A DNA stretch of 64,000 nucleotides from positions 22,292-86,291 of the forward strand of contig PBLA01000001.1 in the NCBI GenBank assembly GCA_002722245.1, read 5' to 3'. Of this stretch, positions 17,720-55,933 are shown piece by piece. Source of the stretch: Flavobacteriales bacterium (lineage in GTDB: Bacteria > Bacteroidota > Bacteroidia > Flavobacteriales_C > GCA-002722245). Under the pieces are notes generated by a model. That model saw only the letters and a program-made list of their open reading frames with translations. It searched no databases and was not told the DNA's origin. The position numbers and the translations under genes are program-made. Every line of letters begins with the position of its first letter. The first letter of the stretch is position 1.

Positions 17720-18727
17720 TTATTCGTGTCCTCTTTTTAGGGAAAATAATGATTTTACTGTAACAATGTTAAGAGGGAATTCAAGTAGAACGTGTAAAAA
17801 GCTAAGGAAAAATAATACGGTGAATCCTAGCTTATAATCAAGGAAATAGAGTAGAATAGAAATTAGCCAGAAACCAATAATGATATAGGCTTTTTTTCCT
17901 TTAAGTGTTTTTTGCCAACCAATAATGGAGGTTTTTGAGAACCAGTTTAGATAATGGTATGTGTAGGCAAATGAAATGAATATTTGAACTTTTATGGCTA
18001 TTGAAAATATGTTCCTTTTTTCGGGGCTAAACCATTCGGTTAGGATTGAACTTACCCCAATCATATTGGTGGCGGTAAAATTGCTTTGCACTTCTTTTGA
18101 AACGATTAGTGGTTGTGATGGAATATTAAGCGTGGAAATTATAAATGGAACTAACGCAATAAGAATAGAGAGGTAATAGCCCGGTTTACTTTTTGACTTT
18201 CGAGCTCCAAATAAAACGAAAAGCAAGGTAAATATATACACATGAACTACCGTGGGAATTAAAAACCCTAATAGATTGAAAAAATTAGGCTTTAGTTGAT
18301 CAAAAAGAAAAATAAGACCAATAATGGGTAGTAAAGAAAAAACTCTGAATATTGTTTTTTTAACCGAAACAAGAATTACAGAAAAAAGAAGAGCCCCTGT
18401 AATTAATCGGGATCCAATAATATTCGCGAGGTGTATTTCTTGGGAGATTTGAGTGTTTAATAAGTCATCAATGTACCTTGATATAGGAAAAATGGAAATT
18501 ACTAGGCAGCATGTGATAAAAAAGTATATCCAGTGCTTGGACCGTTTAAAAAAGTAATCTTTTTTGTTTAGCCAGTTAATTTCCGTGAGGTAGTGAAGCG
18601 GACCTAAAATTGCATAGGAGAACAGAAAAAGTTCAAATGGGACTTTTATAGCAATAGCCAATGATACAAAAACCAGGAGGATGTTTATTCGGTCAATGTT
18701 TTTTGGATCATTTAAACTTAATGCCAT
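17720..18727 (-). CDS. polytopic membrane protein of unknown function with duplicated His motif
   Basis: About 9-10 hydrophobic segments. 'LHYLTEINWLNK' and 'VVHVYIF' occur in the N-terminal half, 'YHYLNWFSK' and 'FLHVLLEF' in the C-terminal half. Lies 31 nt downstream of the 1551-aa gene on the same strand. Confidence 0.6.
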   Translation of the reverse strand: MALSLNDPKNIDRINILLVFVSLAIAIKVPFELFLFSYAILGPLHYLTEINWLNKKDYFFKRSKHWIYFFITCCLVISIFPISRYIDDLLNTQISQEIHLANIIGSRLITGALLFSVILVSVKKTIFRVFSLLPIIGLIFLFDQLKPNFFNLLGFLIPTVVHVYIFTLLFVLFGARKSKSKPGYYLSILIALVPFIISTLNIPSQPLIVSKEVQSNFTATNMIGVSSILTEWFSPEKRNIFSIAIKVQIFISFAYTYHYLNWFSKTSIIGWQKTLKGKKAYIIIGFWLISILLYFLDYKLGFTVLFFLSFLHVLLEFPLNIVTVKSLFSLKRGHE

Positions 18728-18758: not shown

Positions 18759-21700
18759 TTATTTAGACATTCTGGATTTAAACTTTCGCATGGATCGCTC
18801 TGTGCCCAACATAAACGAGTAGGGGCCTTTCTCTTTTGGACCTTTGAATTCTCTTTTATCGGGTTTTAACTCAGTAATAATTGCATTAAAGGCGGCATCA
18901 GATGAAATTACCCTCATTACTCCATTGTTATAGTCAAAGAAGTACCATGTTTCTTCGTCTATTTCAATATAGATCGTTAGTCGCTCTCGGGTTTTCTTTC
19001 TCACAAGTTCAATGTGTCCGTTCACAAACTTGTTTACTTGTTTTTTGTCTATCACTCCAATACCTATTTTGTTTCCTTGTGATTTAAAGGATTGAGTGGT
19101 TTGATCCCATTCCATTTTTACATCCGAAAACATAATGTTGTGACGAACCTCTTTGGCAACTTTTTTAAAGGCTCCGTAAAGGTTTAGTTCGGATACTAAT
19201 TTGTCTCCAAGTTCTTTTCCTGCCATTTCTCTTATGGCTTTACCGTATACTAATCGTGTATTGTCTACGGGTTCCAGTTTAGGGTTACCTAGCATATTGT
19301 CCAACATGTGTGTCCACATTTTTTCGTCGAGGAAAAAATCAACAGCAAGCGCTCCATCTACTTTTACACCATTGGTAAATGGATCATGGTTTACTACACC
19401 ATAGTTAGTGAAGTTGACTTGCCCTAGTTTTTCATTGCCAAGTTGAATTTTACCTTCACCTCGAACGGAACACATTTGCGTATTTAAGGCAACAAAATTT
19501 CCAGGGAAGTTAGATTCTCTTAATTTTTCTTTGTTAGACAGCTGGTATTCATCTTCTTTTTCGTTGTAATTTAAAAAGCCATGGGCTGAAATTAAACTGT
19601 TGTCACTATGGTATTTTTGTGGCGATAAAAATGCGGAATAGAGATGCGTGGAATCTACTTTTAGTAAAACTCCAGATCCCAATTTTGTTCCTTTTGCTTT
19701 GCCCGGAAGCCATGCTTGAATTCCTTCTTCAACAGGAATTAATACATTAGCAGGGTCAATGTCACTTTCAAATCCAATCCAAGCTTTAGCAAGCTTTTTA
19801 CAATCATGTTGTAAATAAGTGGCTCCACGGAAATTCATCCCTTTCTTGGTGGCTTCTATTTTAGAAGTTCCTTTAAAGTGGAAATGGTCACTGAGCATGA
19901 ATTTGTCATCTTCTTTAATATCACCGCTTGCTACGGTTTGGTAGGCTGAATCTACACGTACATTGTTAAAGTGAATGAGTTGCTTTTTCCCTTTTCCATC
20001 AACATATTCGTAATCTCCTTCTGCGGTGTAATCTCTTCGTGCGATAACTTTTACTTTTGCTTTTGTAATTGTGTGGTATTTTGTAGTGATATTGGCGATG
20101 ATTTTAGCGTCTTCTAAAGGCTTCATATTGGCGTTTTTTCGCACCTCAACTTCTCCATCGCTAGTAAAAACTCGTGCATCAGCTACATTGATGAATTTTA
20201 CTTCATGGGCTTTTATAATGTATTTCCGCAAATCGTAGTTGGCTTTTGGTGAGATAAAGCGCAAGGAATCTTGAGAGGGGAGTGTTGAAATAAACTCGGA
20301 CCCTGATAAATCGAGATCGTCACGACCTTCTTGTGCTCCAGCATCTGTTGTTTTCTTGGATTTCTCAGAAGAAGATAGTTCAAGTTCATACTTGTCCATA
20401 AACCATTTGAATTTATCCATGAAACAGATGTATTTATTCATAGGGAAATCAACAAAAGAAGCTCCTCCGTTTGCTAAAAATTCTCCTTCGCGTTTTATAA
20501 AATCAATTTTTGCATTTACATCGTTTGTGGCAAACGCAATACCTCCGTTTTCCCCCTCGGATGTAAGGGTGTCTGCCTTTAATTTGAAGTCGGAGGTGTC
20601 GGCATTAAAAGTCATGTTTTGAAATTCAAAAATTTGTGATTTTAAGTCGGCATTTTCAAATTCTATCCTTCCTTTTCCTGTTAATTCTTTAGGGTCGTAG
20701 CGCAAAACTCCGTGCATAAATGCTTTGTCGTCGTACATTTTCATAGGAATTTCTCGCTTAGCCATTTTGAAATAGTCGTCCGAAGAGTAATAGGCCACAT
20801 TTACTTTTTGTCCCTCTACTTTAGGGTACTCAACGCCTGATTTTTGCGGCTCAATAATGGAACTTTGGGCTGGAGCATTCATGGAATCTAAATAGAATAC
20901 AAAGGCATTTGATTTTGTGGTACTTGTGATGTATTCAAAGTCTCCGTCACCCATTAAACCTTGATTACTTAAGTTAATTTCGTTGTAAAAGGTTGCTTTT
21001 CCTCCGTAAACTGGATAACCTTCGGGTGGGGTTTTTCGCTTAAAGCCAAGAGAGTGATCAGGCATTAGTTTCAAGGGTTCTCTAAAATCAGGAAAGATGC
21101 CTCCTGAATAAAATGTTCCTGGGAAATTTAATGCCTTGTCAGAGAAGGTTCCCATACTGTCTACTGTAAAGGTGTCTAGTTGAAAATATACTTTATCAGG
21201 GTCATAGGCCTTTCCTCTGAGGTTTCGTTTGTTGTAACGGACATATGATTTTTTATCTGAATGGAAGAGGGGATATTGCGGAAAGGAATCAGAAAGAATA
21301 CCTGATTTATTAAATGGCCAGTCAATTTCCAGTTTTCCAGATATATCTTCTATGACACTTCGAACCATGGTAATAGGAACTTGTAATTTACCATCTGCTC
21401 GGGTTCGCCATTTACTCTTATCAAGCATTCCTGCTTTTAATCGTACAGAATCTAATTCGTTTAATCCTATTCCGAAATCGTCGTAGTTAAATTCAAAATT
21501 TTTACCCCAAAATTCAAAACGTTCTGATCGGATTATTCCACCAAATGACATGGCTCGGTTTCGGTGGATTTTTAGGGTTTGGTTTTCAGGAATAAAACCT
21601 GTTTTCCTTGCTCTACTTAATGCCACACCATTTACTCCACGAAGGGTGATGTCATAATTAATGAGGTTCATGCTTGCGTTGGCCTCGCCTTTAATGTCGG

Positions 21701-23414
21701 AAACGATTTCAATGTTGTCATAATCTCCTTTCTTTGATTTGGCATTCATCCATTCAAATAATCTGTCTTGAACGGTGACTATTCCTTCTTCAATATTGTA
21801 AATTAGGAATCCTTTTGCGGCTAATCGTACACAAAGTCGTTGAACAGATTGGTAGTCTTTCCGAATATAATTGGCTAAATCAGCATCTTTAAAAGTGCGT
21901 TCTTCAAAGTTTTCGTCCATTACAAATTTCTTAATACTGTATAAAGGGTGTACACTTTGTAAACCTTGCATTTGCATGAATTTGTCGTTGGAAAAGAAAC
22001 TGTTTGATTCCAATCGCATTATACCAGAACTGGATCCCGGTATCGTTAGGAAGTCCATGTAATCCTTGTCAATTTGCCATTTTAACCACTCGATTTCCAT
22101 ATCCATTCTGTGAAAGGTGTTATAATAGGGTGACGCGCCAATTCCTTTCCCTTCGCAATAGAGGGTAAGTTCTCTTTTATTTGTAAGGAATTTCAATTGA
22201 AGGGCAGGATGGAAGATAGAATCCGTGTCAAGTGCCATGGTTATTGCGGCATAACGGGTTGCAATTCTTTTGTCATCAATTTTAAAGGATTGAGATTTTG
22301 CGATGAGAAATGGCTTGCCATGTCGTTTGATGGTGATTTTAGCAAGTTTTCCATCTACGATTTTACCAATGAAGTTTTTTCCTTTGATCATGAATCCTCC
22401 TTCATAATCTAAGCTGTCTTCGATTTCTTCAATTAATACTTTACCTGAATAGGATTCAAAACGAGGATAGGTAGCATTGTTGGTATCCACATTCGCTAAA
22501 AGTTTTTCTTCTAGCTTACCTTTGAGCATGTAGTCAAAGTATTTGGTGTTTTTATAATCTACTGAATCAGCTTTGTATTTAGAGGATTTTAACTCAATTG
22601 TATACTCGCTTAATTCGGCATAAGATTGTTCCTCGGGTATTCCTGCGCGGGTCCATAATACGCGTCCACCTTTTCCTTTCCATTTTCCTGTGGTAGGATA
22701 AAACGCTCCTTTTGTATTGTATATTCTGGCGGTGTCATTTTTTGCCACGCAATACAGATCCATGCGTGGAAAAACAACTTTTGGTAAACTGTCATAATCA
22801 AATGAAAATGTTGGTGAGGTTCCCTGCCATTTTACATTTTGAGTCACGTATACAGAGTTGTATAAAAAGATATTATTACAATTTGTAAGAAATACAGTGA
22901 AATATCGCTTTTTGTCGTCAATGAGCTTATTCACAGTGATATTCCATGCGTCAAAGGAATCTTCTGATTGAAAAGTGGTGAAAAAACTGATTACGGAGTA
23001 GAGGTAAATTTTAAAATCAGGGATGGCTTTCATCCGCTTTTTTAACATCTTATTACACATCATAATAATCATTTGAATTTGGTAGTTGTTCAACTTTCCA
23101 CTTTCAAAACCATAAACAAATGTGCTGGATGCGTTTAATTTCTTGAGTCTTTTTTGATAAACTAAATTGGCAATTTTATATATTTTTTCTTCTTGTTTCG
23201 GTTTTACAAGGTCCATTGGCCAAAGTGCTCTAAATTCGGCCATGATTAAGTCTGCCTCTTCCTCACTGGTTTTTCGAATAAATCCCTCTAATTCTTCAAT
23301 GAATTGCTCTTTATCATTGGAAAATTGCTTAAATGTTTGCCCTTGAAGTCCAAAACAGCAAAGAGCAATTATTGAGGTTATTATTATTTTTTTGTAAAAG
23401 CCAGGCATAACCAA
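18759..23414 (-). CDS. very large (1551 aa) secreted or envelope protein of unknown function
   Basis: Uninterrupted ORF with N-terminal signal/anchor 'KKIIITSIIALCCFGLQGQ'. Composition is rich in K/F/D/N/G and looks beta-rich. No catalytic motif recognised. The start overlaps the prmA 3' end. Confidence 0.8.
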   Translation of the reverse strand: MVMPGFYKKIIITSIIALCCFGLQGQTFKQFSNDKEQFIEELEGFIRKTSEEEADLIMAEFRALWPMDLVKPKQEEKIYKIANLVYQKRLKKLNASSTFVYGFESGKLNNYQIQMIIMMCNKMLKKRMKAIPDFKIYLYSVISFFTTFQSEDSFDAWNITVNKLIDDKKRYFTVFLTNCNNIFLYNSVYVTQNVKWQGTSPTFSFDYDSLPKVVFPRMDLYCVAKNDTARIYNTKGAFYPTTGKWKGKGGRVLWTRAGIPEEQSYAELSEYTIELKSSKYKADSVDYKNTKYFDYMLKGKLEEKLLANVDTNNATYPRFESYSGKVLIEEIEDSLDYEGGFMIKGKNFIGKIVDGKLAKITIKRHGKPFLIAKSQSFKIDDKRIATRYAAITMALDTDSIFHPALQLKFLTNKRELTLYCEGKGIGASPYYNTFHRMDMEIEWLKWQIDKDYMDFLTIPGSSSGIMRLESNSFFSNDKFMQMQGLQSVHPLYSIKKFVMDENFEERTFKDADLANYIRKDYQSVQRLCVRLAAKGFLIYNIEEGIVTVQDRLFEWMNAKSKKGDYDNIEIVSDIKGEANASMNLINYDITLRGVNGVALSRARKTGFIPENQTLKIHRNRAMSFGGIIRSERFEFWGKNFEFNYDDFGIGLNELDSVRLKAGMLDKSKWRTRADGKLQVPITMVRSVIEDISGKLEIDWPFNKSGILSDSFPQYPLFHSDKKSYVRYNKRNLRGKAYDPDKVYFQLDTFTVDSMGTFSDKALNFPGTFYSGGIFPDFREPLKLMPDHSLGFKRKTPPEGYPVYGGKATFYNEINLSNQGLMGDGDFEYITSTTKSNAFVFYLDSMNAPAQSSIIEPQKSGVEYPKVEGQKVNVAYYSSDDYFKMAKREIPMKMYDDKAFMHGVLRYDPKELTGKGRIEFENADLKSQIFEFQNMTFNADTSDFKLKADTLTSEGENGGIAFATNDVNAKIDFIKREGEFLANGGASFVDFPMNKYICFMDKFKWFMDKYELELSSSEKSKKTTDAGAQEGRDDLDLSGSEFISTLPSQDSLRFISPKANYDLRKYIIKAHEVKFINVADARVFTSDGEVEVRKNANMKPLEDAKIIANITTKYHTITKAKVKVIARRDYTAEGDYEYVDGKGKKQLIHFNNVRVDSAYQTVASGDIKEDDKFMLSDHFHFKGTSKIEATKKGMNFRGATYLQHDCKKLAKAWIGFESDIDPANVLIPVEEGIQAWLPGKAKGTKLGSGVLLKVDSTHLYSAFLSPQKYHSDNSLISAHGFLNYNEKEDEYQLSNKEKLRESNFPGNFVALNTQMCSVRGEGKIQLGNEKLGQVNFTNYGVVNHDPFTNGVKVDGALAVDFFLDEKMWTHMLDNMLGNPKLEPVDNTRLVYGKAIREMAGKELGDKLVSELNLYGAFKKVAKEVRHNIMFSDVKMEWDQTTQSFKSQGNKIGIGVIDKKQVNKFVNGHIELVRKKTRERLTIYIEIDEETWYFFDYNNGVMRVISSDAAFNAIITELKPDKREFKGPKEKGPYSFMLGTERSMRKFKSRMSK

Positions 23415-30157: not shown

Positions 30158-30733
30158 ATGATTGATTTACTTCTACATATTGATCATGATTTATTCACAT
30201 TTTTAAATGGATTGCATTCGGCCTGGATGGATCCTATTCAGTACTGGATCAGTAATAAATTTATTTGGATTCCTTTTTATGCTTTTTTGTTGTTTCTTCT
30301 TTTTAAACACTATAAAAAAAGAGCTGTTTTAGCCGTTGTTTTTATTGTTTCGCTGATTACTTCAACGGATCAGTTGTCAGGTTTTTCTAAACGGTATGCT
30401 GGTAGATACCGGCCGTGCAGAGAGGAGTCATGGCATCGTCCTCGGCCACATCTTGTGGATAATCACTGCGGAGGAGCTTACGGCTTTTTTAGTGCGCATG
30501 CCTCTAGTGCATTTGGGCTAGCTGTATTTGTGGGTACGCTTCTCATGCCTGTGTTTAACCATGCGCGAAAGTATATGTTGTTTTGGGCGGCAATCGTAGC
30601 TTATAGTAGAGTGTATCTAGGTGTACATTATCCCTCTGATATTTTTGTTGGAGCCTTAGTTGGCTTGTTTTTAGGATTTCTTTTTACAGCGCTCTTTAAA
30701 TGGCTCAGTCAAGTGGAGTTTAGTTCAAAATAG
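30158..30733 (+). CDS. PAP2-family phosphatase (membrane)
   Basis: PAP2 motifs 'KRYAGRYRP', 'FFSAHAS', 'SRVYLGVHYPSD'. Confidence 0.85.
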   Translation: MIDLLLHIDHDLFTFLNGLHSAWMDPIQYWISNKFIWIPFYAFLLFLLFKHYKKRAVLAVVFIVSLITSTDQLSGFSKRYAGRYRPCREESWHRPRPHLVDNHCGGAYGFFSAHASSAFGLAVFVGTLLMPVFNHARKYMLFWAAIVAYSRVYLGVHYPSDIFVGALVGLFLGFLFTALFKWLSQVEFSSK

Positions 30734-32231
30734 CTTTTCTTGAAAAGTCTGATTTATTTTTTACCCAAGATTTAATGAACTCTTTTTTCATATCATTTTC
30801 TGAGTTTTCTATTTCTTCGAGTCTGTTGTGTAATTGTTTAAATTGAATCTTTTGAAGAGTGTCATCACCGAAACATATAAGTAGTTTGTGAAACGTTTTA
30901 GAGAGTTCTTTTAAAATATCATTGCTAGCATCACATTTTTGAAGGGCGCGTTCAAGGTTTTTTGATGAAGATTCAAACAATTCGAAATTTTTAGATTCTA
31001 GATAAACAATGGTCGTAAGTAGTTTTTTAGAATGAATCATATTTTGATAATCCAAATTGTCTGACTTAAGAATGATGTTCTTTAAACTGCCTAAAACACC
31101 TTTGTTTCTTCCACATCTTAATTGAGCCCAAGCTAAATTAATGAGCAGAGTATTGTGAAGACTTGTGCCTAATTTTGTTCTTTTATTTAGCACAAAATCC
31201 TCAACTTTTTTAACCTGTAAAAAGATTTTGTTCAAGTCGTTTTGAATTAAGTAAAACTCCTGTTCTATATTCAAAAAGTATCCGTAATCGCTGTTTTTAC
31301 TATAATAAGTAATGGTGTTGTCATTGAAAAAAATATTACTTTTTTCTAAAAACAATGCTATTTCATTGTTTTTATTCTGATTCTTTAAGTAGTTTATTTT
31401 AAAGAATAATGCATGGATGTATTTTGTTGGCAGGAGCTTTATTTGTAATTCATTAGAGTGAAATAATAATAGGATTTTATCCACAAATTTCTCTGCTTCA
31501 ACAAGATTATTAGTTAGCTCATAGTAGTTTCTTAATGAATTGTAATACAGTAGTTTATTGTGTTTTAACTCTATTTTCTCTTTAGGCTGTGTAATGTCTT
31601 TTAAACGAAGGTTGTTTTGAGGTTCAACAATACCGGAAGATGCTTGCTTATTGTTTGAGATGGCAAGCATATCCAGATTGTTGTTGTAAATTTCGTTATT
31701 GAGTTGAATTGCTTTGCTCAGCTTTGCTTGGTCATGTTTAAAAGCTGATAATTCATCCCAATTCGGAAATTCATTCATTTTTGCTAAACAATGCAGTTTT
31801 AACCTTTTAATTTCTTGTGTTGAACCCAATAACCCAATCTCATTTGACAGTTCTTCTGCTTTCTTTAGCTTTCTTAAGGCTTGATGATATAAGCCTTTGT
31901 TTTGAAGAATTTCAACAGCGTCTATAATTCTTCTTACTCGTACGGAAGGAAGTGTATCAGCGTTATAAAATGTTAAACTTTTCACAACCAATTCGTACAA
32001 ATATTTTTTTAAGGAAGGATATCTCTTTTCTATTGGAGTTCCTTTAAATTTTTCTTTAATGGCTTCCTCATTGAATACTTCTTGCTTATCAATTTCTTCA
32101 AATAAACGGATATAATCATTTTTCTTGCTAGGCGTTTGTTGTTTGGCCAATAATTTAAAATATCTTTTTTCCGTTTGAGAAAGGTTTTTAATGAGTTCGT
32201 GTAGGTAATTTTGAACTTTAGGTTTTGTCAT
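30720..32231 (-). CDS. hypothetical all-helical repeat (TPR-like) protein
   Basis: 503 aa with helical-repeat character and no recognised motif. ATG 32231 chosen because the TTG at 32261 lies inside a -7 box. Confidence 0.55.
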   Translation of the reverse strand: MTKPKVQNYLHELIKNLSQTEKRYFKLLAKQQTPSKKNDYIRLFEEIDKQEVFNEEAIKEKFKGTPIEKRYPSLKKYLYELVVKSLTFYNADTLPSVRVRRIIDAVEILQNKGLYHQALRKLKKAEELSNEIGLLGSTQEIKRLKLHCLAKMNEFPNWDELSAFKHDQAKLSKAIQLNNEIYNNNLDMLAISNNKQASSGIVEPQNNLRLKDITQPKEKIELKHNKLLYYNSLRNYYELTNNLVEAEKFVDKILLLFHSNELQIKLLPTKYIHALFFKINYLKNQNKNNEIALFLEKSNIFFNDNTITYYSKNSDYGYFLNIEQEFYLIQNDLNKIFLQVKKVEDFVLNKRTKLGTSLHNTLLINLAWAQLRCGRNKGVLGSLKNIILKSDNLDYQNMIHSKKLLTTIVYLESKNFELFESSSKNLERALQKCDASNDILKELSKTFHKLLICFGDDTLQKIQFKQLHNRLEEIENSENDMKKEFIKSWVKNKSDFSRKAILN

Positions 32232-32258
32232 TAAAGAATAGTTAGGGGCGAGTAGCTT

Positions 32259-32266
32259 CAAAAGTA
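32259..32266 (-). promoter_or_regulatory. -7 promoter box TACTTTTG (minus strand)
   Basis: Plus-strand caaaagta. 27 nt upstream of ATG 32231. Confidence 0.45.
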
Positions 32267-41250: not shown

Positions 41251-42087
41251 TTAAGTCAATGATTTTTTTCTCACCTTTTGCCAACCTAAAACGCTGAAAA
41301 GTCCTAATCCCATTAATACACCAATAGCAGGAACTGTAGGTATATCGAGAAATAGCGCAATAAAGTGACCACAGATACAACTCATAATACCAAAGCAAAC
41401 AGCAATGATCAAAAATGGTTTAAGTTTTTGAGTTATGACATGCGCAAATGATGCAGGTACAACTAATAATCCAATGACCATTATTGCTCCAACACTATCG
41501 AAACTATATACTGTGGAAACGCTTGACAGACCCAAAAGAAGATAGTTCCAAAAAGGAATAGAAATCCCTATAGATTTCGCGTATGCTTGATCAAAGCTGG
41601 TTAATTTAAAGCCTTTCAATCCCAGTAAAACAATAGGAGCTGTGATTAAAGAAATAATAATCAAATTAAAAGTAGGAGTGGGTATTCCCCATGTTTTAGG
41701 AACGATAGGGATCGTGTTAATGTCGCCAAATAAGACGCAGTCCACATCAATATCAGCATTTTTTGCTTGTGAAGTAATGAGTATAATTCCAATTGCAAAA
41801 AGGAGTGTGTAAATAATTCCAATTGAACTATCTTTTCCAAAACCTCCTATTCGATTCAACCACTCAATTAACAAAATAGCGATAATCCCAAATCCACTTG
41901 CACCAAGAAGCATCCAGAAAGAGTTGATTTCACCTGAAATCATAAAAGCAATAACAATACCAGGTAAAACAGCATGAGATAAGGCATCACCAATAAGACT
42001 CATTTTTCGAAGTACAAGAAAACTTCCCAGTAAACTGGAGTTTATGCCGATAATGCATGCAGTGAGTATAATCCAAAAATCAAACAT
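41251..42087 (-). CDS. metal ABC transporter permease (ABC-3/TroD-ZnuB family)
   Basis: 8-9 TM segments. 'GDALSHAVLPGI' is the ABC-3 signature. The start overlaps the upstream stop (TAATG). Confidence 0.88.
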   Translation of the reverse strand: MFDFWIILTACIIGINSSLLGSFLVLRKMSLIGDALSHAVLPGIVIAFMISGEINSFWMLLGASGFGIIAILLIEWLNRIGGFGKDSSIGIIYTLLFAIGIILITSQAKNADIDVDCVLFGDINTIPIVPKTWGIPTPTFNLIIISLITAPIVLLGLKGFKLTSFDQAYAKSIGISIPFWNYLLLGLSSVSTVYSFDSVGAIMVIGLLVVPASFAHVITQKLKPFLIIAVCFGIMSCICGHFIALFLDIPTVPAIGVLMGLGLFSVLGWQKVRKKSLT

Positions 42088-43385
42088 TAGTCTTCGTAAG
42101 GGATATTTTGTTGATGCGGATCGCTCGTTGGCCTCCCCAGTGTTTTTAATAATTCTGTTTCAAGGGATTTAGTCATGATGTGCTCAATGGATTCAGCACT
42201 TTCATGAACATGATCGGATTGTATTTGCATAAACTTTTCCATGTAAAGCTCCCACAATCTATGTATCCTAATAATTCTCTTTGCCTCTGCAATTCCTTTT
42301 TCAGTAAGCGTCCAAGCCCCATTCGCTTCAATTACAAACTTTTTTCTTTTTAAGATACTCAACCCTTTACTGAGATCAAAAGAAGCAAAAGGATGAAAAT
42401 TTTGAATCATTTGAACAGAATAACTTTGATCAAATTGGTTTTTGTGTTCACCTAATTTATACAGCGTTTTTAGGACATTATCCGAGATTATTTTATTTCG
42501 GTTTTGAATCCCCATTATTTTTTTTGTGATTAATCCCTTTCGAGATAGTAATGCGGACAAAATAGCGATGGTGGATAGTACTACAATAATCCAGGGGCCT
42601 GTAGGCATGTCTGGAAACAGATAGGAAACAAAAACACCCAAAATACTGCTTAAAGCTGCAAACGCACCAGACAATAAAATAGATTTTTTAAAGTGGTTGG
42701 TCCAGAAAAATGCAGAAGAGGCAGGAGTAATAATTAATGCACTCATCAGAATTATTCCAACTGTTTGAATTCCAATAGCAGTGCTCACGATAATTAATCC
42801 TGAAATTAGACTTTGAACAAGTTTGTTATTTAAACCAATTGTGTTTGCAAATCCCTGATCAAACAATGCAATTTTGAAGTGTCTATAAAATAAAATAACA
42901 ACCCCTAAAACAAGTCCACATAATCCACAAAAGAGATAGAGGTCTTTTCGAACAATCGTAGCTGCTTTTCCAAACAGAAAATCAGAAAGACCACTCTGCT
43001 GACTATTTCCTGAGTGTTGTATAATACTTAACAAAATAACACCTAAACTAAAGAGCACTGATAAGGCAATTGCAATGGCTGCATCTTTTTTAATTCGTGA
43101 GATTTTTGTTAACCAGTCTACAAGGAATACGGCAATTGCTCCAGCAAACATTCCTCCAGCTATTAAATAAATTGGATTTTTAACCCCAGAGAGCATAAAT
43201 CCTAAACATACACCTGGTAAAACAGAGTGGGAAACGGCATCAACAATTAATGCTTTTTTATTTAAAACAACTAAAACCCCTACAATACCGCACGTAAAAC
43301 CTAAAATTAACGTTCCAAAAAAAACGTTCGAAATATTGGCGTCTTGAAAAGAAAAAAAATAAATAAAATCGTCCCAAAATTTCAT
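42087..43385 (-). CDS. metal ABC transporter permease fused to a C-terminal DtxR/MntR-type repressor domain
   Basis: The first ~300 residues are ABC-3 permease ('VDAVSHSVLPGV'). The last ~130 aa align to the free-standing repressor encoded at 45094-45756: 'IRIHRLWELYMEKFMQIQSDHVHESAESIEHIM...LGRPTSDPHQQNIP' vs 'IRKHRLWEVFLVEKLKFGWDEIHEIAEQLEHIK...LGYPKNDPHGDPIP'. ATG 43385 lies 1 nt after the ATPase stop. Confidence 0.85.
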   Translation of the reverse strand: MKFWDDFIYFFSFQDANISNVFFGTLILGFTCGIVGVLVVLNKKALIVDAVSHSVLPGVCLGFMLSGVKNPIYLIAGGMFAGAIAVFLVDWLTKISRIKKDAAIAIALSVLFSLGVILLSIIQHSGNSQQSGLSDFLFGKAATIVRKDLYLFCGLCGLVLGVVILFYRHFKIALFDQGFANTIGLNNKLVQSLISGLIIVSTAIGIQTVGIILMSALIITPASSAFFWTNHFKKSILLSGAFAALSSILGVFVSYLFPDMPTGPWIIVVLSTIAILSALLSRKGLITKKIMGIQNRNKIISDNVLKTLYKLGEHKNQFDQSYSVQMIQNFHPFASFDLSKGLSILKRKKFVIEANGAWTLTEKGIAEAKRIIRIHRLWELYMEKFMQIQSDHVHESAESIEHIMTKSLETELLKTLGRPTSDPHQQNIPYED

Positions 43386-43386
43386 G

Positions 43387-44172
43387 TTACTCTCGAATTG
43401 GAAATTGTCGTTGTTTGTATACTTCACCCAATTGCTCAAGAATACTCAGATTACCTCCGTAAGTTTTTTGCAGAAGTTCAGTAGTATATACGTCGTTAGT
43501 GGGACCACTCGCAACGATTCGTTTGTTAATAAGAACCATCCAATCAAAATATTCCATTGCAGATTGAAGGTCGTGATGAACAACAAAAATTGTTTTTCCT
43601 TCCTGTTGAAGCGTTAAAAGAAGATCAACAATTGCTTTTTCACTGGCCATATCAACACCAGCAAAAGGCTCATCCATGAAGTACAAATCTGCCTCTTGAG
43701 CCAAAGCTCGGGCAATGAATACACGTTGTTGTTGTCCACCAGAAAGAGCCGAAATATGATGCTTTGCGAAATCCATCATTTTTACTTTTTTAAGCGCATC
43801 AATAGCAATTTGTTTATCCTGTTTTGTTAGGCGTTTGAAAAGACTTTTTTTACCATATCTTCCCATTTCTACAACATCAAGGACAGTTGCAGGAAAATCC
43901 CAGTCAACCGATTCTTTCTGGGGTACATAAGCTATTTTTTGTCGAACCTTTTTTAAAGGTTGATTAAAGATTTTTACATAACCACTTGCTGATGGAACAA
44001 GTTCCATCATGGCTTTTAATAGGGTGGATTTACCCGCACCATTTGGCCCTATAATACCGACCATTTTCCCCTTAGGAATGTTAAAATCCACATTCCATAA
44101 TACGGGTTTATTATTATAGGCAACCGTTAAATCGTGAATTTCAACAATAGCCTCTTCTACATGCTTAATCAT
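43387..44172 (-). CDS. metal ABC transporter ATP-binding protein
   Basis: Walker A 'GPNGAGKST', signature 'LSGGQQQR', Walker B 'LYFMDEP'. Confidence 0.92.
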   Translation of the reverse strand: MIKHVEEAIVEIHDLTVAYNNKPVLWNVDFNIPKGKMVGIIGPNGAGKSTLLKAMMELVPSASGYVKIFNQPLKKVRQKIAYVPQKESVDWDFPATVLDVVEMGRYGKKSLFKRLTKQDKQIAIDALKKVKMMDFAKHHISALSGGQQQRVFIARALAQEADLYFMDEPFAGVDMASEKAIVDLLLTLQQEGKTIFVVHHDLQSAMEYFDWMVLINKRIVASGPTNDVYTTELLQKTYGGNLSILEQLGEVYKQRQFPIRE

Positions 44173-45093: not shown

Positions 45094-45756
45094 TTATTTT
45101 TCTTTGGAAACATTAAGGTTTTTAGCCACTAATTCTGAAAATGTCCGTTCAGTTTTTTGATTGACCAAAACTTTTAAGGACTTGTCAAATTGAAAGAAAT
45201 CTAAAATTTCAATGGATGAACCCAGTTTGAGGTCGATACTATCTAAATATCTTAAGAAATCTTTGGAGTCTTCAGAGACACCAATTAAAATTGATTTTTC
45301 ACCAATTGATAAATCATTTAATTTGTATTTTTTTAGAGTATGAAACTCGCCTTTTTTGTTTGGAATGGGATCACCATGAGGATCGTTTTTTGGATATCCC
45401 AAGTGCTCGTCCAATTTATCAATAAGTTTTGCGGATTTAATGTGCTCCAATTGCTCAGCAATTTCATGAATTTCATCCCATCCGAATTTAAGTTTCTCTA
45501 CCAAAAAAACTTCCCACAAACGATGTTTTCTTATTACATGTAATGCAATTTGTTCACCTTCTTTTGAAAGTGTTGTTCCTTGATATTTTATATAGTTTAC
45601 TAAACCTTTGTCGGCCAATTTTTTTACCATATCGGATACCGAGGAAGCTTTTGTAGAGAGCTCTTCAGCAATTGCATTGGTGGAAACTCCTTCTTTTGAT
45701 GGTCCGCTTAACTTAAAAATTGCTTTTAGATAATCTTCGGTGGTACTGGTTTGCAT
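45094..45756 (-). CDS. DtxR/MntR-family metal-dependent transcriptional repressor with C-terminal FeoA/SH3-like domain
   Basis: wHTH 'TEDYLKAIFKL...TNAIAEELSTKASSVSDMVKKL', dimerisation/metal region 'HRLWEVFL...IHEIAEQLEH', 'DPHGDPIP', then an SH3-like tail. Confidence 0.9.
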   Translation of the reverse strand: MQTSTTEDYLKAIFKLSGPSKEGVSTNAIAEELSTKASSVSDMVKKLADKGLVNYIKYQGTTLSKEGEQIALHVIRKHRLWEVFLVEKLKFGWDEIHEIAEQLEHIKSAKLIDKLDEHLGYPKNDPHGDPIPNKKGEFHTLKKYKLNDLSIGEKSILIGVSEDSKDFLRYLDSIDLKLGSSIEILDFFQFDKSLKVLVNQKTERTFSELVAKNLNVSKEK

Positions 45757-48254: not shown

Positions 48255-48608
48255 TTTTTTTTTCATTGTTTGAGTAAGTCTGAGCTCCCCTTTTATTCAT
48301 GGTGTTCTACCAAAAATATTTACACATTTGATTCCTTTATTTAGTGGTTATGAAATTTAAACAGTTGTAACCCAACGATTAACACGACGTATCAAAAGAT
48401 GACAATTGGATTGTAATGTAAATTATATTCCTCTTAATATTTGATTTTTTTTGAAAACGACTTGAACAAGCTATTCAAAATGTGTTTTTTCTGATCAACT
48501 GTTTATGCAGTGGTGGTTATGAAGTGTTTTTAAAAATCAGAAAATCTTTCATTAGAGTAGTTTTTTAATTGTGTTATCAAATTAAAACTTAACTAAAACT
48601 CTAGTATC

Positions 48609-49337
48609 ATGGAAAATTTATTTTTAACAGCAACTTTAGAAGCGGGGGACTATGTAGGGTTTACCTTCTTCATCGGTAGTATGGCCATGCTAGCCGCTAC
48701 TGTATTTTTCTTTCTAGAAATGAAATCAGTTTCTGGAAAGTGGAGAACGTCACTATTGGTGTCGGGATTAATTACATTTATTGCCGCAGTGCATTATTAT
48801 TACATGCGGGATTTCTGGGTGGAAAACAAAACCTCACCAACAGAATTTCGATATATTGACTGGATTCTAACGGTTCCTTTGATGTGTGTTGAATTCTATT
48901 TAATTCTTAAAGCATTTGGAGCAAAAAAAGGGTTGCTTTGGAAAATGATTTTTTACTCGGTATGGATGTTAGTTACCGGTTATTTAGGTGAAACCGTTTT
49001 CAGAGAATCAAGCGCAACTTGGGGTGCCATTTCAACAATTGGTTATTTAGGTATATTTTATGAAGTATGGTTTGGATCTGCTAAGCAACTATCCAACAAT
49101 TCAAACAATCCTACTCTACAAAAAGCGTTTAGTGCACTTGCATGGTTTATTTTTGCAGGATGGGCTATTTATCCAATTGGATACATGACAATTCCAGGTG
49201 GGTTATTAAGTGGAGCATTACCTGCGGAATCAATGGATATCATTTATAACATTGGTGATGCAATTAACAAAATTGGATTTGGATTGGTTATTTATAGTTT
49301 AGCGATAAATAGCACAAATGAAACCTCTGCTGCATAA
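48609..49337 (+). CDS. proteorhodopsin (light-driven H+ pump, DTE motif, Met at tuning position 105)
   Basis: 7 TM segments. 'FRYIDWILTVPLMCVEFYLIL' gives R94/D97/T101/M105/E108 (green PR numbering). 'AVHYYYMR' gives H75. 'IGDAINKIGFG' gives D227/N230/K231 (Schiff-base Lys). Confidence 0.93.
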   Translation: MENLFLTATLEAGDYVGFTFFIGSMAMLAATVFFFLEMKSVSGKWRTSLLVSGLITFIAAVHYYYMRDFWVENKTSPTEFRYIDWILTVPLMCVEFYLILKAFGAKKGLLWKMIFYSVWMLVTGYLGETVFRESSATWGAISTIGYLGIFYEVWFGSAKQLSNNSNNPTLQKAFSALAWFIFAGWAIYPIGYMTIPGGLLSGALPAESMDIIYNIGDAINKIGFGLVIYSLAINSTNETSAA

Positions 49338-49380
49338 TCAATCTAATGGAAGGATAATTTTTTTAAAAAATTCATAAATA

Positions 49381-49415
49381 AAAAACCGAAGCAAAATTTG
49401 TTTCGGTTTTTTGTT
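49381..49415. terminator. bidirectional rho-independent terminator between the convergent rhodopsin and hydrolase genes
   Basis: AAAAA-CCGAAGCAAA...TTTGTTTCGG-TTTTTTGTTTT. The stem runs 49386-49406 with one G-U pair and is flanked by an A-run and a T-run. Confidence 0.75.
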
Positions 49416-49430
49416 TTAATAAAAAAACAT

Positions 49431-50489
49431 CTAATGATGCATTACTTTAGAGAGTAGTAAGCTTTGCACCATGCTATTTTCTGTTTTTTGATAATGGGAA
49501 CTGCAATACGTCATATGGCCGTATCCGATATTTTCATTTTTAAATTGAACATTACTGCCTTGAGATGTATAATAATTTGCTAACCACTGACCAATTACAG
49601 GTGGGCAAAGGTTATCATCCGATGCATGCCAAATACTTATGTTTTTTGTTTTGATTAATCTTGGATCGAACCCCCAATCATAACATACATCCTTTGCAGA
49701 TTCCCAACATATTCCTGCTGAACCTCTTTTGACACATCGTTCAACAGAACAGGACAACATCCTAATCAATGCGGTGTCTTGTTCCATATTATCGCACGAG
49801 TATACTAATGTTTTAACAGGTAAACTAGGGGAGAAGAGGTCGGTTGTTATATAAAAGGTAAAAAACATCCACGCGTTTAGCGGATGCTTTAATTGTTCGG
49901 TTGTTTTAAATTGGTCATGTCCCAAAGCTCCTTCAATATTTAATTCCTGTGTTAAATTGTTCGGCAATAAAGGGGCGTTTAAACCCAGTGCAGTACATCG
50001 TTCTTTATAAAAAAAGGCGGCAGCCATAGCATGGGGAGTTCCTTGAGAGTGCCCCGAAATCATAAAATGATCAATGTTTTCTTGTTCTAAAACAGCATAA
50101 AGGTCTTCGGATGCCCATTCAATAACTTTCCGTCCAATTTTCAAATCTGTATTTCCACATCCGGGTAGTGAAATGGATATGCCTCTTACATTTAATTCCT
50201 CACAAGATTTTTGGTGTATTAATTTTTCAAATGTGGCATCTAGCCCAGATCCATGAATATTAATTATCACGGGTGTGTTTGGGTCATTACTACCGTACGT
50301 AAAGTATTCAATTTTTCGTCCATTTGTATCTAAAGCAAGCTTTCCGCCTTCCGCTATCAATTGCTCTCGATTAATTTTAGATTGTCCATTACGTTTTATT
50401 ATAATTCCGCCTATTGTAAAAATCAAAAACAAACATAATCCTCCAATTATAGAATATTTACAAATTTTTTTTAATCTTTTCATATTCAA
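49431..50489 (-). CDS. membrane-anchored alpha/beta hydrolase
   Basis: N-terminal TM, 'INIHGSG' oxyanion region, nucleophile elbow 'SGHSQG', candidate Asp 'HASDDN' and His 'GYGHM'. Unusually Cys-rich. Confidence 0.7.
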   Translation of the reverse strand: MNMKRLKKICKYSIIGGLCLFLIFTIGGIIIKRNGQSKINREQLIAEGGKLALDTNGRKIEYFTYGSNDPNTPVIINIHGSGLDATFEKLIHQKSCEELNVRGISISLPGCGNTDLKIGRKVIEWASEDLYAVLEQENIDHFMISGHSQGTPHAMAAAFFYKERCTALGLNAPLLPNNLTQELNIEGALGHDQFKTTEQLKHPLNAWMFFTFYITTDLFSPSLPVKTLVYSCDNMEQDTALIRMLSCSVERCVKRGSAGICWESAKDVCYDWGFDPRLIKTKNISIWHASDDNLCPPVIGQWLANYYTSQGSNVQFKNENIGYGHMTYCSSHYQKTENSMVQSLLLSKVMHH

Positions 50490-51451: not shown

Positions 51452-51964
51452 TTAGTTCAAATTATAGAAGAAATCTTCATCAGATTGCGCTTGTTCTTTT
51501 ATTCCTGCAAGCGCTCGGATCATAATTCCTTTGATTTGTGTGTTTACGAGAAGCCATGTTAGAGGGTTAAAAAGTTTGTTTTTGGAATAGTAAGTGTATG
51601 TGTAAGTAACTTTTATTTTTCTATTCTCTAATTCCTCAACAGACCACTCGCCAATAGCTTTTTTAATAAAAAACAAACTATTAAACTCAAAATCATAGAG
51701 TGTCCATCTCCAATATTTATTTTCAACTCGTTCAAGAATGACATCCTTAAACATTCTTCCTTTTTTAACTAGAAGGTTTCCGTTATTCATTGGGTACCTT
51801 ATTCCGTTTATTTTACCCCAAGTCTCGTCTTCTTCAAAACCTGTAACAGGAGGTTGGAATAAATAGCCCTTCATAAAACGAGTTGCATCTCCCAAGATAG
51901 GTGCTTTAAATGCTCGCTCTCTACTGCATTCAAAAATGTCTTTTAGTTGATAACTGTACTGCAT
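51452..51964 (-). CDS. hypothetical protein, possibly SRPBCC/START-like fold
   Basis: 170 aa. The beta-rich core followed by a long C-terminal helix resembles SRPBCC proteins. No diagnostic motif. Confidence 0.35.
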   Translation of the reverse strand: MQYSYQLKDIFECSRERAFKAPILGDATRFMKGYLFQPPVTGFEEDETWGKINGIRYPMNNGNLLVKKGRMFKDVILERVENKYWRWTLYDFEFNSLFFIKKAIGEWSVEELENRKIKVTYTYTYYSKNKLFNPLTWLLVNTQIKGIMIRALAGIKEQAQSDEDFFYNLN

Positions 51965-52005: not shown

Positions 52006-52755
52006 TTATTTGTTTTTACCGTTCTTTTCTAAAATTCTTACATAAATTAATTTATGTCGACTCTTTTGATTTTCTCTTTGTTCAATTTCGAATCTTCCAA
52101 TTGATTTGATGAGTGGAGTAAGCTTTTCAAAACCATAATTTCGTGAATCAAAGTTTGGACGTTTTTTTTGCAATAAACTTCCTACGTCTCCTAAAAAAGC
52201 CCATCCTTCATCATCGGATAAATCTCGTATTGTTGCAGAAATTAGCTGGATTTCCTTTTTGGTTATTTTATCAATTGTAGGTTCGCTATTATCCTTATTT
52301 TCGGCTTTTTCCTCCGAGCGCTTTTTTAAAATCTCAATGTAAATGAATTTATCGCAAGCTACAATGAATGGGTTTGGAGTTTTTTTCTCGCCTATACCAA
52401 TGACTTGCATCCCTGCTTCTTTAAGACGGGTAGCTAAACGTGTAAAGTCACTATCACTGGAAACTAAACAAAATCCGTTTACTTTTTCGCTGTAAAGAAT
52501 ATCCATGGCGTCTATAATCATTGCAGAGTCTGTGGCGTTTTTTCCAGTGGTGTATCCATATTGCTGAATAGGAGTAATCGCATTTTCCAACAGTAGATTT
52601 TTCCATTTATTTAAACCAGGCCTTGTCCAGTCTCCATATATTCTTTTAATAGAAGGGTTTCCATATTTTGTAATCTCCTCCATCATCTCCTTTACGTGGG
52701 CAGAAGGGATATTATCACCGTCTATTAATACAGCTATGTTTGAGTTGTTATTCAT
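52006..52755 (-). CDS. NYN (LabA-like PIN) ribonuclease domain protein with C-terminal OST-HTH/LOTUS domain
   Basis: 'IAVLIDGDNI', 'KNATDSAMIIDAMD', 'FCLVSSDSDFTRLATRLKEAG' (NYN acidic residues). C-terminal 'DEGWAFLGDVGSLLQKKRPNFDSRNYGFEKLTPLI' (LOTUS). Confidence 0.8.
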   Translation of the reverse strand: MNNNSNIAVLIDGDNIPSAHVKEMMEEITKYGNPSIKRIYGDWTRPGLNKWKNLLLENAITPIQQYGYTTGKNATDSAMIIDAMDILYSEKVNGFCLVSSDSDFTRLATRLKEAGMQVIGIGEKKTPNPFIVACDKFIYIEILKKRSEEKAENKDNSEPTIDKITKKEIQLISATIRDLSDDEGWAFLGDVGSLLQKKRPNFDSRNYGFEKLTPLIKSIGRFEIEQRENQKSRHKLIYVRILEKNGKNK

Positions 52756-54155: not shown

Positions 54156-54872
54156 TTAAATAGACATTAATTCCTTGAACCTTGAGGTTTGTCTTCTTGA
54201 AATTTCCAGTTTCTCTCCACTTTTTAAGGTAACCCTTAAACCGCCATTAAACCAAGCCTCAACTTTGTCAATCCACGTTAGGTTAATAATGTATTTTCTG
54301 GATATTCTAAAGAATTCTTTGTCATTTAAACGTTTTTCTAGGTTGTTTAATGACTTTAGAATCATAGGTTTACTTTCTTCAAAGTAAAGTCTTACATAAT
54401 TACCCTCAGATTCGAACATACGTACTTTGTCCATCTTAACAAACCAGCATTTTTCACCATCTTTGATGAAAATTTGTGAATCATAAGTAAGTTTATCGTC
54501 TGAGTTACTTGATTTGGATTCCTTTTCATCTTCTTTTACCTTTTCAATTGCTTTTTCAAGTCGATTAAGTTCAACCGGTTTAAGCACGTAATCGAGCGCA
54601 TTTACCTCGAACGCTTTTAGCGCGTATTCGTCGTAAGCAGTTACAAAAATGATATTAGGCACGATGTGTAGGTGTTCTAGTACTTCAAAACCGGTCATAC
54701 CAGGCATTTGGATATCAAGAAAAACTAAATCAGGATTTAATTCTTCAATTTTTTCAATTGCTTCCTCGCCATTTGTGGCCTCACCAATGATTTCAATTTC
54801 TGGAAATTTTTCCAAAAGTCTTGTGAGTTCTGTTCTTGCGAGTCGTTCATCATCAACTAATAAAGCTTTCAT
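54156..54872 (-). CDS. LytR/AlgR-family response regulator (REC + LytTR)
   Basis: REC 'ALLVDDE...LVFLDIQMPGMTG', with a C-terminal LytTR DNA-binding domain ('RISRKYIINLTWI'). Confidence 0.9.
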   Translation of the reverse strand: MKALLVDDERLARTELTRLLEKFPEIEIIGEATNGEEAIEKIEELNPDLVFLDIQMPGMTGFEVLEHLHIVPNIIFVTAYDEYALKAFEVNALDYVLKPVELNRLEKAIEKVKEDEKESKSSNSDDKLTYDSQIFIKDGEKCWFVKMDKVRMFESEGNYVRLYFEESKPMILKSLNNLEKRLNDKEFFRISRKYIINLTWIDKVEAWFNGGLRVTLKSGEKLEISRRQTSRFKELMSI

Positions 54873-55933
54873 ATTATATTTTTAGGGATTTTCAGTGTAG
54901 TAATAACCTCTTGGCTATTTAAATTTTGGATTTGAAATGATGCACGATCTTCAAAAATAAAGTTTAATCGTTGCTTACTGTTTTCAATACCAAATCCATT
55001 GGCGTCTTCGTTATGTTTAATTTTCGGATTGTACTGACCCGAATTAATAATTTCCATAATTAAAAACTCATTAGTAGAAGTAGAATTAATAATTAATCTA
55101 CCGCCATCAATTAATCGACTTATACCATGTTTAATCGCATTTTCGGCCAGAGTCTGGATTAACATTGGCGGAATATGATAGTTTAAACAAGAAGGTGAGG
55201 TATTGATTTCATAATACAAGCGCTCTTCCAAACGAATTTTTTCAAGATTTAAATAATCTTTTACCAATTTCAATTCTTCTTCAATTGTAATTAAACTTCT
55301 TTTTTCAAGCGTTAACGTATGACGAAGAATATTACTTAATTGAGTAATACCCTCTTTTGCTTTTTCAGTATCCTCATCAATCAAAGCTCTTAAACCATTC
55401 ATACTGTTAAATATGAAATGTGGATTCAATTGTGATTTAAATTTATTTAATTGAATTTCTTTTAATTTACTCTGTTGTGTTAAATTTTTAATTTCCTCTT
55501 TTTTAAAATTCCTAAAAAAGTAAACCGCAAAATAGAGTATTCCCCAAATAAAATAAACAGTACTGAACGTAGCGGACTGGGCTAAAAATTCGGCCAAAGT
55601 AATATCCTTAACCGATCCATTGTACCAACTTAATCGAATGAGGTATAATAAAAGAATATTTAGTGTTCCAACAATTAAACTTAGAATGGCCAGTTTATGA
55701 AATATTCTTGTAATTCCTTCATTACGCCATTGATATAAATTAAAGATGTATCGAACGAAATGAGAACAGCCAATACCTAACAAAACAAGGAAAATGGAAT
55801 AATAAATATCATTTTTACTAATTGTTCCCTTTGAAAGATAGTTGAATAAAAGATTAGCAAGTGTAAAGGCGGTCCAGCCTAATACTTGCAAGCTCAAATA
55901 CATTTGTTTTTTCTTAGAGATCATTAAGTACAA
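54869..55933 (-). CDS. sensor histidine kinase, LytS/YehU-type (His_kinase PF06580-like)
   Basis: 5-6 N-terminal TM segments, H-box 'LKSQLNPHFIFNSMN', ATPase 'ENAIKHG'. 4-nt overlap with the regulator gene. Confidence 0.88.
   Translation of the reverse strand: MYLMISKKKQMYLSLQVLGWTAFTLANLLFNYLSKGTISKNDIYYSIFLVLLGIGCSHFVRYIFNLYQWRNEGITRIFHKLAILSLIVGTLNILLLYLIRLSWYNGSVKDITLAEFLAQSATFSTVYFIWGILYFAVYFFRNFKKEEIKNLTQQSKLKEIQLNKFKSQLNPHFIFNSMNGLRALIDEDTEKAKEGITQLSNILRHTLTLEKRSLITIEEELKLVKDYLNLEKIRLEERLYYEINTSPSCLNYHIPPMLIQTLAENAIKHGISRLIDGGRLIINSTSTNEFLIMEIINSGQYNPKIKHNEDANGFGIENSKQRLNFIFEDRASFQIQNLNSQEVITTLKIPKNII

Follow-up and report, generated by a model that had tools for sequence, protein, structure and literature searches.

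A Bacteroidota-type proteorhodopsin with a fenestration glycine, encoded by a gene without a neighbouring blh in an uncultured marine Flavobacteriales bacterium

The DNA analysed here, a 64-kb stretch of contig PBLA01000001.1 from a Flavobacteriales bacterium (the window), carries a proteorhodopsin (PR) gene on its forward strand at positions 48609–49337. The coding sequence opens with an ATG, specifies 242 residues and closes with a TAA at 49335–49337, and no other open reading frame (ORF) of at least 50 aa overlaps it on either strand. Pfam family PF01036 matches residues 17–234 of the product with an E-value of 2.9e-44 and 151.6 bits (cut-off 24.6); an NCBIfam search with the same protein returned no match. 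The full-length ORF and the PF01036 hidden Markov model match bear out the complete rhodopsin gene that a preliminary description of this DNA had placed here. That description had also read an in-frame TAA at 48594–48596, which indeed closes the frame 12 nt before the ATG on the forward strand, and the four intervening codons (aac, tct, agt, atc) include no start. The other forward frames are closed as well: the 354-nt spacer 5′ of the gene contains many stops in each of the three, so that no frameshifted signal-peptide or N-terminal segment is hidden there. In an alignment of ten related loci the rhodopsin ATG forms an invariant column, preceded by AT-rich DNA that cannot be aligned. The gene is a complete, ordinary Bacteroidota-type PR of the kind common in marine Bacteroidota.

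The class of the protein was assigned from its rankings by phmmer against all PDB chains and by Foldseek against the PDB. The best phmmer match is NM-R1 (PDB 9JOV and 9JOU) with an E-value of 2e-86, followed by green PR (2e-56), blue PR (6e-50), the Exiguobacterium rhodopsin (4e-33) and xanthorhodopsin (XR) and Gloeobacter rhodopsin (1e-23 to 3e-27), with the Na+ and Cl− pumps at about 1e-11 and bacteriorhodopsin (BR) at about 1e-9. An AlphaFold2 model built from a 40-sequence alignment displays seven transmembrane helices with a pLDDT of 93.5 and a pTM of 0.90, residues 1–7 being disordered. Foldseek superposes this model best on NM-R1 9JOU (TM-scores 0.89/0.94, root-mean-square deviation 1.7 Å, 60% identity), with green PR (GPR) and blue PR coming next. 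Both rankings thus place PRs first, with phmmer E-values of 2e-86 to 8e-50, and not the sensory, Na+ or Cl− rhodopsins that the preliminary description had named as incompatible with its proposal of an outward proton pump.

The three best-known points of comparison differ in their distance from the window protein. NM-R1 of Nonlabens marinus S1-08, solved with myxol (9JOV) and with zeaxanthin (9JOU), is about 60% identical over the full length and shares the DTE motif, the histidine, the Met at position 105, the fenestration glycine and the Tyr/Met ring contact; its source is a cultured member of the Flavobacteriaceae that makes myxol and zeaxanthin, unlike the uncultured lineage considered here. 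NM-R1 is a DTE proton pump with Asp87 as acceptor and Glu98 as donor (bioRxiv 10.1101/2024.11.08.622755). GPR, from SAR86 eBAC31A08 (PDB 2L6X, 7B03 and 8CNK), displays the same catalytic residues at about 46% identity. XR and Kin4B8 (PDB 3DDL and 8I2Z) have the glycine at the fenestration and the DTE pump chemistry in common with the window protein, although they belong to another clade and are only about 28–29% identical to it.

The functional residues were mapped by MAFFT alignment with GPR, NM-R1 and BR. The NM-R1 sequence was taken from the PDB match; residues 22–247 of the GPR sequence used agree with the GPR chain in the PDB match, and the BR numbering reproduces D85, T89, D96, W182, Y185, D212 and K216. 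The strings quoted in the preliminary description, 'FRYIDWILTVPLMCVEF', 'AVHYYYMR' and 'GDAINKIGF', were all found in the translation. The helix C motif extends from the codon of R81 to that of E95 (48849–48893, on the forward strand like all codons given here), its residues R81, D84, T88, M92 and E95 corresponding to R94, D97, T101, position 105 and E108 of GPR. Within it lie the codons of the Schiff-base proton acceptor D84 (48858–48860), of M92 at the spectral-tuning site (48882–48884) and of the proton donor E95 (48891–48893), all assigned by this alignment. H62 (48792–48794) aligns with GPR His75, the histidine that in PRs typically pairs with the acceptor Asp, and W185 and Y188 align with GPR W197 and Y200. 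In helix G, where the codons of D217 to K221 occupy 49257–49271, D217, N220 and K221 correspond to D227, N230 and K231. K221 (49269–49271) also aligns with BR K216 and is the helix G lysine predicted to hold retinal as a Schiff base. Every residue that had been listed as needed for pumping (H75, R94, D97, T101, E108, D227, N230 and K231 in GPR numbering) is therefore present in the mapping, and the alignment agrees with the earlier reading of Met, not Gln, at position 105, which would be the green-type state. That position is green-type in both proteins, with Leu in GPR and Met in the window protein, and Met is the usual green-type state of Bacteroidota PRs (bioRxiv 10.1101/2024.11.08.622755). 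With Met92 at the tuning site, the pigment is expected to absorb green light.

Membership of the PR clade and the type of a green outward H+ pump are well supported by these sequence comparisons, and the protein is likely to be a working outward proton pump. The alternative of a sensory rhodopsin, or of a Na+ or Cl− pump in place of a proton pump, takes its sole support from the automatic JGI name 'sensory rhodopsin' carried by several cluster members and is very improbable. The helix C motif is DTE, neither the NDQ of Na+ pumps nor the NTQ of Cl− pumps, the proton donor Glu95 and His62 are both present, and Na+ and Cl− pumps match at about 1e-11, far behind the proton pump NM-R1 at 2e-86. Beside the rhodopsin gene there is no transducer or MCP/HAMP gene; the neighbours encode an M32 peptidase and an alpha/beta hydrolase. 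With motif, similarity ranking and neighbours all contrary, the sensory and ion-pump readings were dropped.

The same residues recur throughout the clade. Among 5.8 billion proteins searched, relatives numbered in the thousands, and the figures given here derive from the best 120. These are 78–100% identical to the window protein and mostly 237–245 aa long, a few reaching 263 aa; their named sources are Flavobacteriales, Crocinitomicaceae, Ekhidna, Cyclobacteriaceae, Flammeovirgaceae and other Bacteroidota metagenome-assembled genomes (MAGs), and the clade, whose uncultured members are 73–91% identical to the window protein, is also listed with members from Schleiferiaceae, Roseivirgaceae and Saprospiraceae. 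In reference genomes, 80 loci were found with 62–91% identity, belonging to Flavobacteriales, Cytophagales and Saprospiraceae. The representatives clustered at 50% identity, in which names were absent and many sequences partial, brought no gain over the best-120 set. H62, R81, D84, T88, M92, E95, W185, Y188, D217, N220 and K221 are invariant in all 121 sequences (the window protein and its 120 best relatives), and 113 of the 121 have only 9–15 residues ahead of the helix-A tyrosine. The Met at position 105 and the short N-terminus are thus characters of the clade and not peculiar to this gene.

The N-terminal tail (MENLFLTATLEAGD) consists of 14 residues, carries a net charge of −3 and contains no Lys or Arg. 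Helix A begins at residue 15 of the AlphaFold2 model, so that the earlier estimate of about 12 residues before helix A was correct within two residues. The first hydrophobic stretch is helix A itself, and no hydrophobic core lies ahead of it. Type I rhodopsins have an N-out topology, and the positive-inside rule is an established rule of membrane topology. In the window protein the cytoplasmic loops AB, CD and EF carry charges of +2, +3 and +1, and the outer loops BC, DE and FG carry −1 each. Together with the short acidic tail, these loop charges lead by the positive-inside rule to an N-out topology in which the tail would be translocated uncleaved. Insertion would thus proceed N-out without cleavage, with helix A as the first membrane anchor. 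The lack of a cleavable signal peptide, which the preliminary description had contrasted with the SAR86 prototype, is likewise indicated by the upstream stop, the closed frames and the acidic tail devoid of a hydrophobic core. GPR, in contrast, has a cleavable N-terminal signal peptide. NM-R1 is also without one, and its acceptor Asp stands at position 87 against 84 in the window protein, an offset of only +3.

A further feature, not mentioned in the preliminary description, is the 'fenestration' glycine of helix E, Gly139 (codon 49023–49025), which corresponds to XR Gly156, NM-R1 Gly142 and BR Trp138. Its column is set by the ungapped stretch 'ATWGAIST' in the window protein, 'WLWGLFSG' in NM-R1 and 'FVWWAIST' in BR. 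GPR has a bulky Phe at XR position 156 and hence no antenna (Chazan et al., bioRxiv 10.1101/2022.08.24.505090). MAFFT puts GPR Pro150, not this Phe, in the Gly139 column; the GPR segment is gapped there and its placement is unreliable, and the column formed by the window protein, NM-R1 and BR is unaffected. Gly139 is invariant in 121 of 121 clade members. A carotenoid can reach the retinal ring only where XR156 is a glycine, and replacement of this residue by Phe in Kin4B8 ended carotenoid binding (bioRxiv 10.1101/2022.08.24.505090). In the same study the fenestrated flavobacterial PRs KR1, EinA29G6 and TsPR bound zeaxanthin or lutein with 35–40% energy transfer (bioRxiv 10.1101/2022.08.24.505090). 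NM-R1 binds myxol and zeaxanthin through the fenestration, and 'Almost all PRs of Bacteroidota' carry Met105 together with a glycine at XR156 (bioRxiv 10.1101/2024.11.08.622755).

Given the invariance of Gly139 and the xanthophyll binding of the tested fenestrated relatives, the complete description that is most likely is a green PR equipped with a xanthophyll antenna, and the chances that the protein actually uses such an antenna are judged to be about even. The residues that hold the carotenoid ring in NM-R1 are only partly kept. Two of the six are conserved (NM-R1 Y194 and M195, here Y192 and M193) and four are replaced (W139 by A136, L143 by A140, W201 by L199 and Y202 by L200), the replacements occurring mostly clade-wide in the 121-member alignment. 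A possible but less favoured alternative is therefore the same green proton pump with retinal as its sole chromophore and no carotenoid antenna in vivo despite Gly139. The exchange of four ring-pocket residues for smaller or aliphatic ones is consistent with such a pigment, as is the lack of any carotenoid biosynthesis gene in the 64-kb window; moreover, the glycine at XR156 is necessary for an antenna but may not suffice (bioRxiv 10.1101/2022.08.24.505090). Weighing on the other side are the conservation of Gly139 without exception in the 121 sequences, the fact that every fenestrated flavobacterial PR tested (NM-R1, KR1, EinA29G6 and TsPR) is a xanthophyll binder, and the conservation of Tyr192 and Met193, whose counterparts contact both rings in NM-R1.

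The source of retinal was approached through blh (PF15461, beta-carotene 15,15'-dioxygenase), for which the surroundings of the rhodopsin gene were examined in 82 related loci. In 73 of these blh directly adjoins the rhodopsin gene, 72 times on the same strand within 1.5 kb: it lies within 400 nt downstream in 32 loci, within 400 nt upstream in 33, and downstream within 1.5 kb in a further 7, and in one locus it lies upstream on the opposite strand. Three loci without blh have a left contig flank too short to judge, and six lack it in spite of adequate flanks. In two relatives with Pfam annotation the gene directly after the rhodopsin gene is PF15461, and adjacency of the two genes is the usual state in the literature (PMC5932025). 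No blh was detected in the 64-kb window by tblastn with seven diverse Blh queries (best E-value 0.058) or by Pfam scans of the ORFs, and tblastn found no blh remnant in the 354-nt spacer. The match with an E-value of 0.058, at about 25.6–25.9 kb, was rejected as blh; it falls inside a MauE/DoxX membrane-protein gene and was judged compositional. The nearest relative, locus L001 (91% identity), is also without blh; there the rhodopsin gene lies between an ion-channel gene and a histidine operon. The genes that flank the rhodopsin gene of the window differ from those of its relatives, and not even L001 has one of them.

This absence of blh and of carotenoid genes, which the preliminary description did not mention, raises the question of the chromophore source, and the solo state is the one unusual trait of the gene. 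About 74 kb of the genome was covered, and retinal would have to come either from a blh at another place in the genome or from the surroundings of the cell. A genome devoid of blh, in which the pump would run only on environmental retinal or the apo-protein would stay idle, is unlikely. The adjacency of blh in 73 of 82 relatives, set against its absence from the window and from 10 kb to its left, speaks for such a genome, as do the state of the closest relative L001 and the usual adjacency reported in the literature (PMC5932025). However, blh may lie outside the roughly 74 kb covered, six related loci with adequate flanks likewise have no adjacent blh, and the functional residues are intact in a protein that is identical or nearly so on many metagenome contigs. 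The intact residues and the near-identity across contigs argue for selection on a working pigment. An equally doubtful variant is that the lineage gained or moved the rhodopsin gene alone, so that its genome perhaps has no retinal-forming enzyme and the pump uses scavenged retinal, perhaps with a xanthophyll; in such a case the clade-wide Ala/Leu replacements in the ring pocket would go with a different antenna preference.

A Bacteroidota-type green PR that acts as a proton pump, probably binds a xanthophyll and is encoded by a stand-alone gene remains the description held with high confidence. The working proposed for it extends from the observed sequence, fold, residues and gene context to predictions on pumping, colour, antenna binding and retinal source. 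All-trans retinal would be bound at Lys221, and green light would drive outward proton transport that contributes to the proton-motive force. As judged from the homologues GPR and NM-R1, the retinal would be isomerised by light, the Schiff-base proton would pass to Asp84, held by His62 and Arg81, and Glu95 would reprotonate the Schiff base from the cytoplasmic side. Met92 at the tuning site would yield a green-absorbing pigment, and during insertion the 14-residue acidic tail would be translocated with helix A anchoring first. Gly139 would open the retinal pocket to the lipid, where a hydroxylated xanthophyll such as zeaxanthin or myxol would probably be bound and would pass blue-light energy to the retinal, as in NM-R1, KR1 and TsPR. 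The gene itself would act as a monocistronic unit with its own terminator, set among housekeeping genes at a synteny breakpoint. Three observations weigh against this description. The four replaced ring residues mean that antenna binding or selectivity may differ from that of NM-R1; neither the 64-kb window nor the adjoining 10 kb on its left side contains a blh, crt or RPE65-type gene; and no promoter was found, the forward strand of the spacer containing no exact Bacteroidetes-type TAnnTTTG. With this gene, the uncultured marine Flavobacteriales bacterium is likely to be a photoheterotroph. Beyond annotation its importance is small, as it adds one more fenestrated Bacteroidota PR thought to use retinal and a xanthophyll for blue and green light.

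The upstream neighbours of the rhodopsin gene encode, on the same strand, a 135-aa protein without a Pfam match, a DUF423 protein and an M32 carboxypeptidase. The M32 peptidase led to four related lineages, at 78, 76, 73 and 68% identity; in the one at 73%, a 90%-identical IMP dehydrogenase (IMPDH) is encoded on the same contig, of 131 kb. Each of the four retains the 135-aa, DUF423 and M32 genes as a trio, and L100 also keeps the whole metal-transporter block. The genes after M32 differ in each of the four lineages and include the rhodopsin in none. The arrangement recurs on at least 13 independent contigs: in all 13 with the identical M32 protein, the rhodopsin gene adjoins it. The designation of the gene as accessory in the preliminary description is upheld by these sister lineages, which retain the upstream genes and have no rhodopsin at this position. 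The rhodopsin gene borders a conserved block, within a region that differs among species, and this position is a synteny breakpoint. Such a position is compatible with the gene having been gained, lost or relocated on its own, without proving horizontal transfer, and makes the locus a modest but clear case of a rhodopsin gene able to come, go or move independently. Strain L087, 98.6% identical in DNA, loses collinearity at about position 51477 of the window; at 18683–20552 of L087 a gene for a T9SS-secreted protein of about 615 aa (DUF8202/Por_Secre_tail) replaces the 137-aa, 144-aa and hydrolase genes. The L087 locus ends before the rhodopsin position, and its junction gene did not turn up in two scans of metagenome DNA. 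In the Saprospiraceae MAGs L056 (482–7317) and L062 (4–6066) a DUF423–M32 pair stands 3–4 kb upstream of a blh–rhodopsin pair. The DUF423–M32 neighbourhood thus recurs in another Bacteroidota order, which could be coincidence or old synteny.

The AT-rich spacer of 354 nt that separates the rhodopsin gene from that for the M32 carboxypeptidase (48255–48608, forward strand) presumably holds the promoter and 5′ leader. Two −7-like boxes with one mismatch each, at 48558–48565 and 48566–48573 on the forward strand, are candidates only, and a sigma-70 scan of the DNA upstream of the rhodopsin gene did not rise above shuffled sequences. An A-rich motif resembling TTAAACAAA recurs about 30–60 nt upstream of the rhodopsin start in L002–L006 and L081, and the window contains the variant 'TTATCAAATTAAAAC' at 48574–48590. 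Past the gene, 38 nt after its stop, a hairpin lies between an A-run and a T-run at 49376–49416, detected by RNA folding and as inverted repeat I5. Its arms of 20 nt are 90% complementary, its folding energy is −21.9 kcal/mol (z −5.0), and none of 200 shuffles folded as well; a consensus terminator scan did not mark it, owing to too few G-C pairs. Placed between the convergent genes for the rhodopsin and the alpha/beta hydrolase, the hairpin is probably an intrinsic terminator that works in both directions. With this putative terminator on one side and the 354-nt spacer on the other, the rhodopsin gene is most likely monocistronic. The convergent alpha/beta-hydrolase gene (49431–50489, reverse strand) has a sub-threshold match to Chlorophyllase (E-value 1.3e-4, 21.3 bits, cut-off 26) and is not found next to the rhodopsin gene in any related locus. 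The rhodopsin gene has a GC content of 36.2%, close to the 35.2% of the window, neither GC nor skew shifts across it, and no mobile-element signature in the form of notable flanking direct or inverted repeats surrounds it.

The protein is already known. An identical sequence (100%) is public as cluster member P0396, NCBI MBL55608.1, 'MAG: rhodopsin [Flavobacteriales bacterium]', and is also recorded in JGI, ENA, Logan and Tara. The IMPDH of the window shares a cluster of at least 90% identity with MBL55591.1, 17 accession numbers below MBL55608.1, and the distance from the IMPDH gene to the rhodopsin gene in the window is 17 ORFs. Contigs of 78–93 kb in Tara and ENA carry DNA 99.96–100% identical to the window. 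It is a typical representative of the Bacteroidota PRs that have a fenestration and Met105 but no signal peptide, and its nearest characterised relative is NM-R1. The Logan contigs L093–L098, which come from several independent short-read assemblies, end inside the rhodopsin gene at about 49150–49280 of the window; such assembly breaks are expected where co-occurring populations share a conserved gene.

Pfam scans or precomputed annotations covered essentially all window ORFs of at least 100 aa. The functions recognised in them are housekeeping only, with no carotenoid or retinal gene, and include a tRNA synthetase, RF3, TIM, IMPDH, peptidyl-prolyl isomerases, MoxR, PlsY, FabI and others, together with a Zn/Mn ABC transporter and its DtxR-type repressor. 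Scans of the whole 64-kb window for tRNA genes and, at gathering score, for Rfam families gave no hit. On the reverse strand, 5 kb from the rhodopsin gene, 54156–55933 encodes a LytTR response regulator (238 aa) and a PF06580 histidine kinase (354 aa). A similar pair lies less than 10 kb from the rhodopsin gene in 17 related loci of Ekhidna, Saprospiraceae and Roseivirgaceae, at about 30% identity. The pair was not taken for a linked regulator, since the low identity of about 30% and the phylogenetic clustering of the loci point to probable paralogues; its recurrence may reflect chance among abundant paralogues or a real link. No Pfam match at an E-value of 0.001 or below was obtained for three reverse-strand ORFs, at 18759–23414 (1551 aa), 17720–18727 (335 aa) and 30720–32261 (513 aa). 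Two domain fusions were also observed. At 42087–43439 (reverse strand) the permease of an ABC-3 metal transporter is fused to a C-terminal DtxR-type metal-binding and dimerisation domain (PF02742), and it shares an operon with ZnuA, an ATPase, a second permease and a separate DtxR/FeoA repressor (45094–45756). At 52006–52755 (reverse strand), adjoining the variable segment, an NYN ribonuclease domain is fused to an OST-HTH/LOTUS domain.

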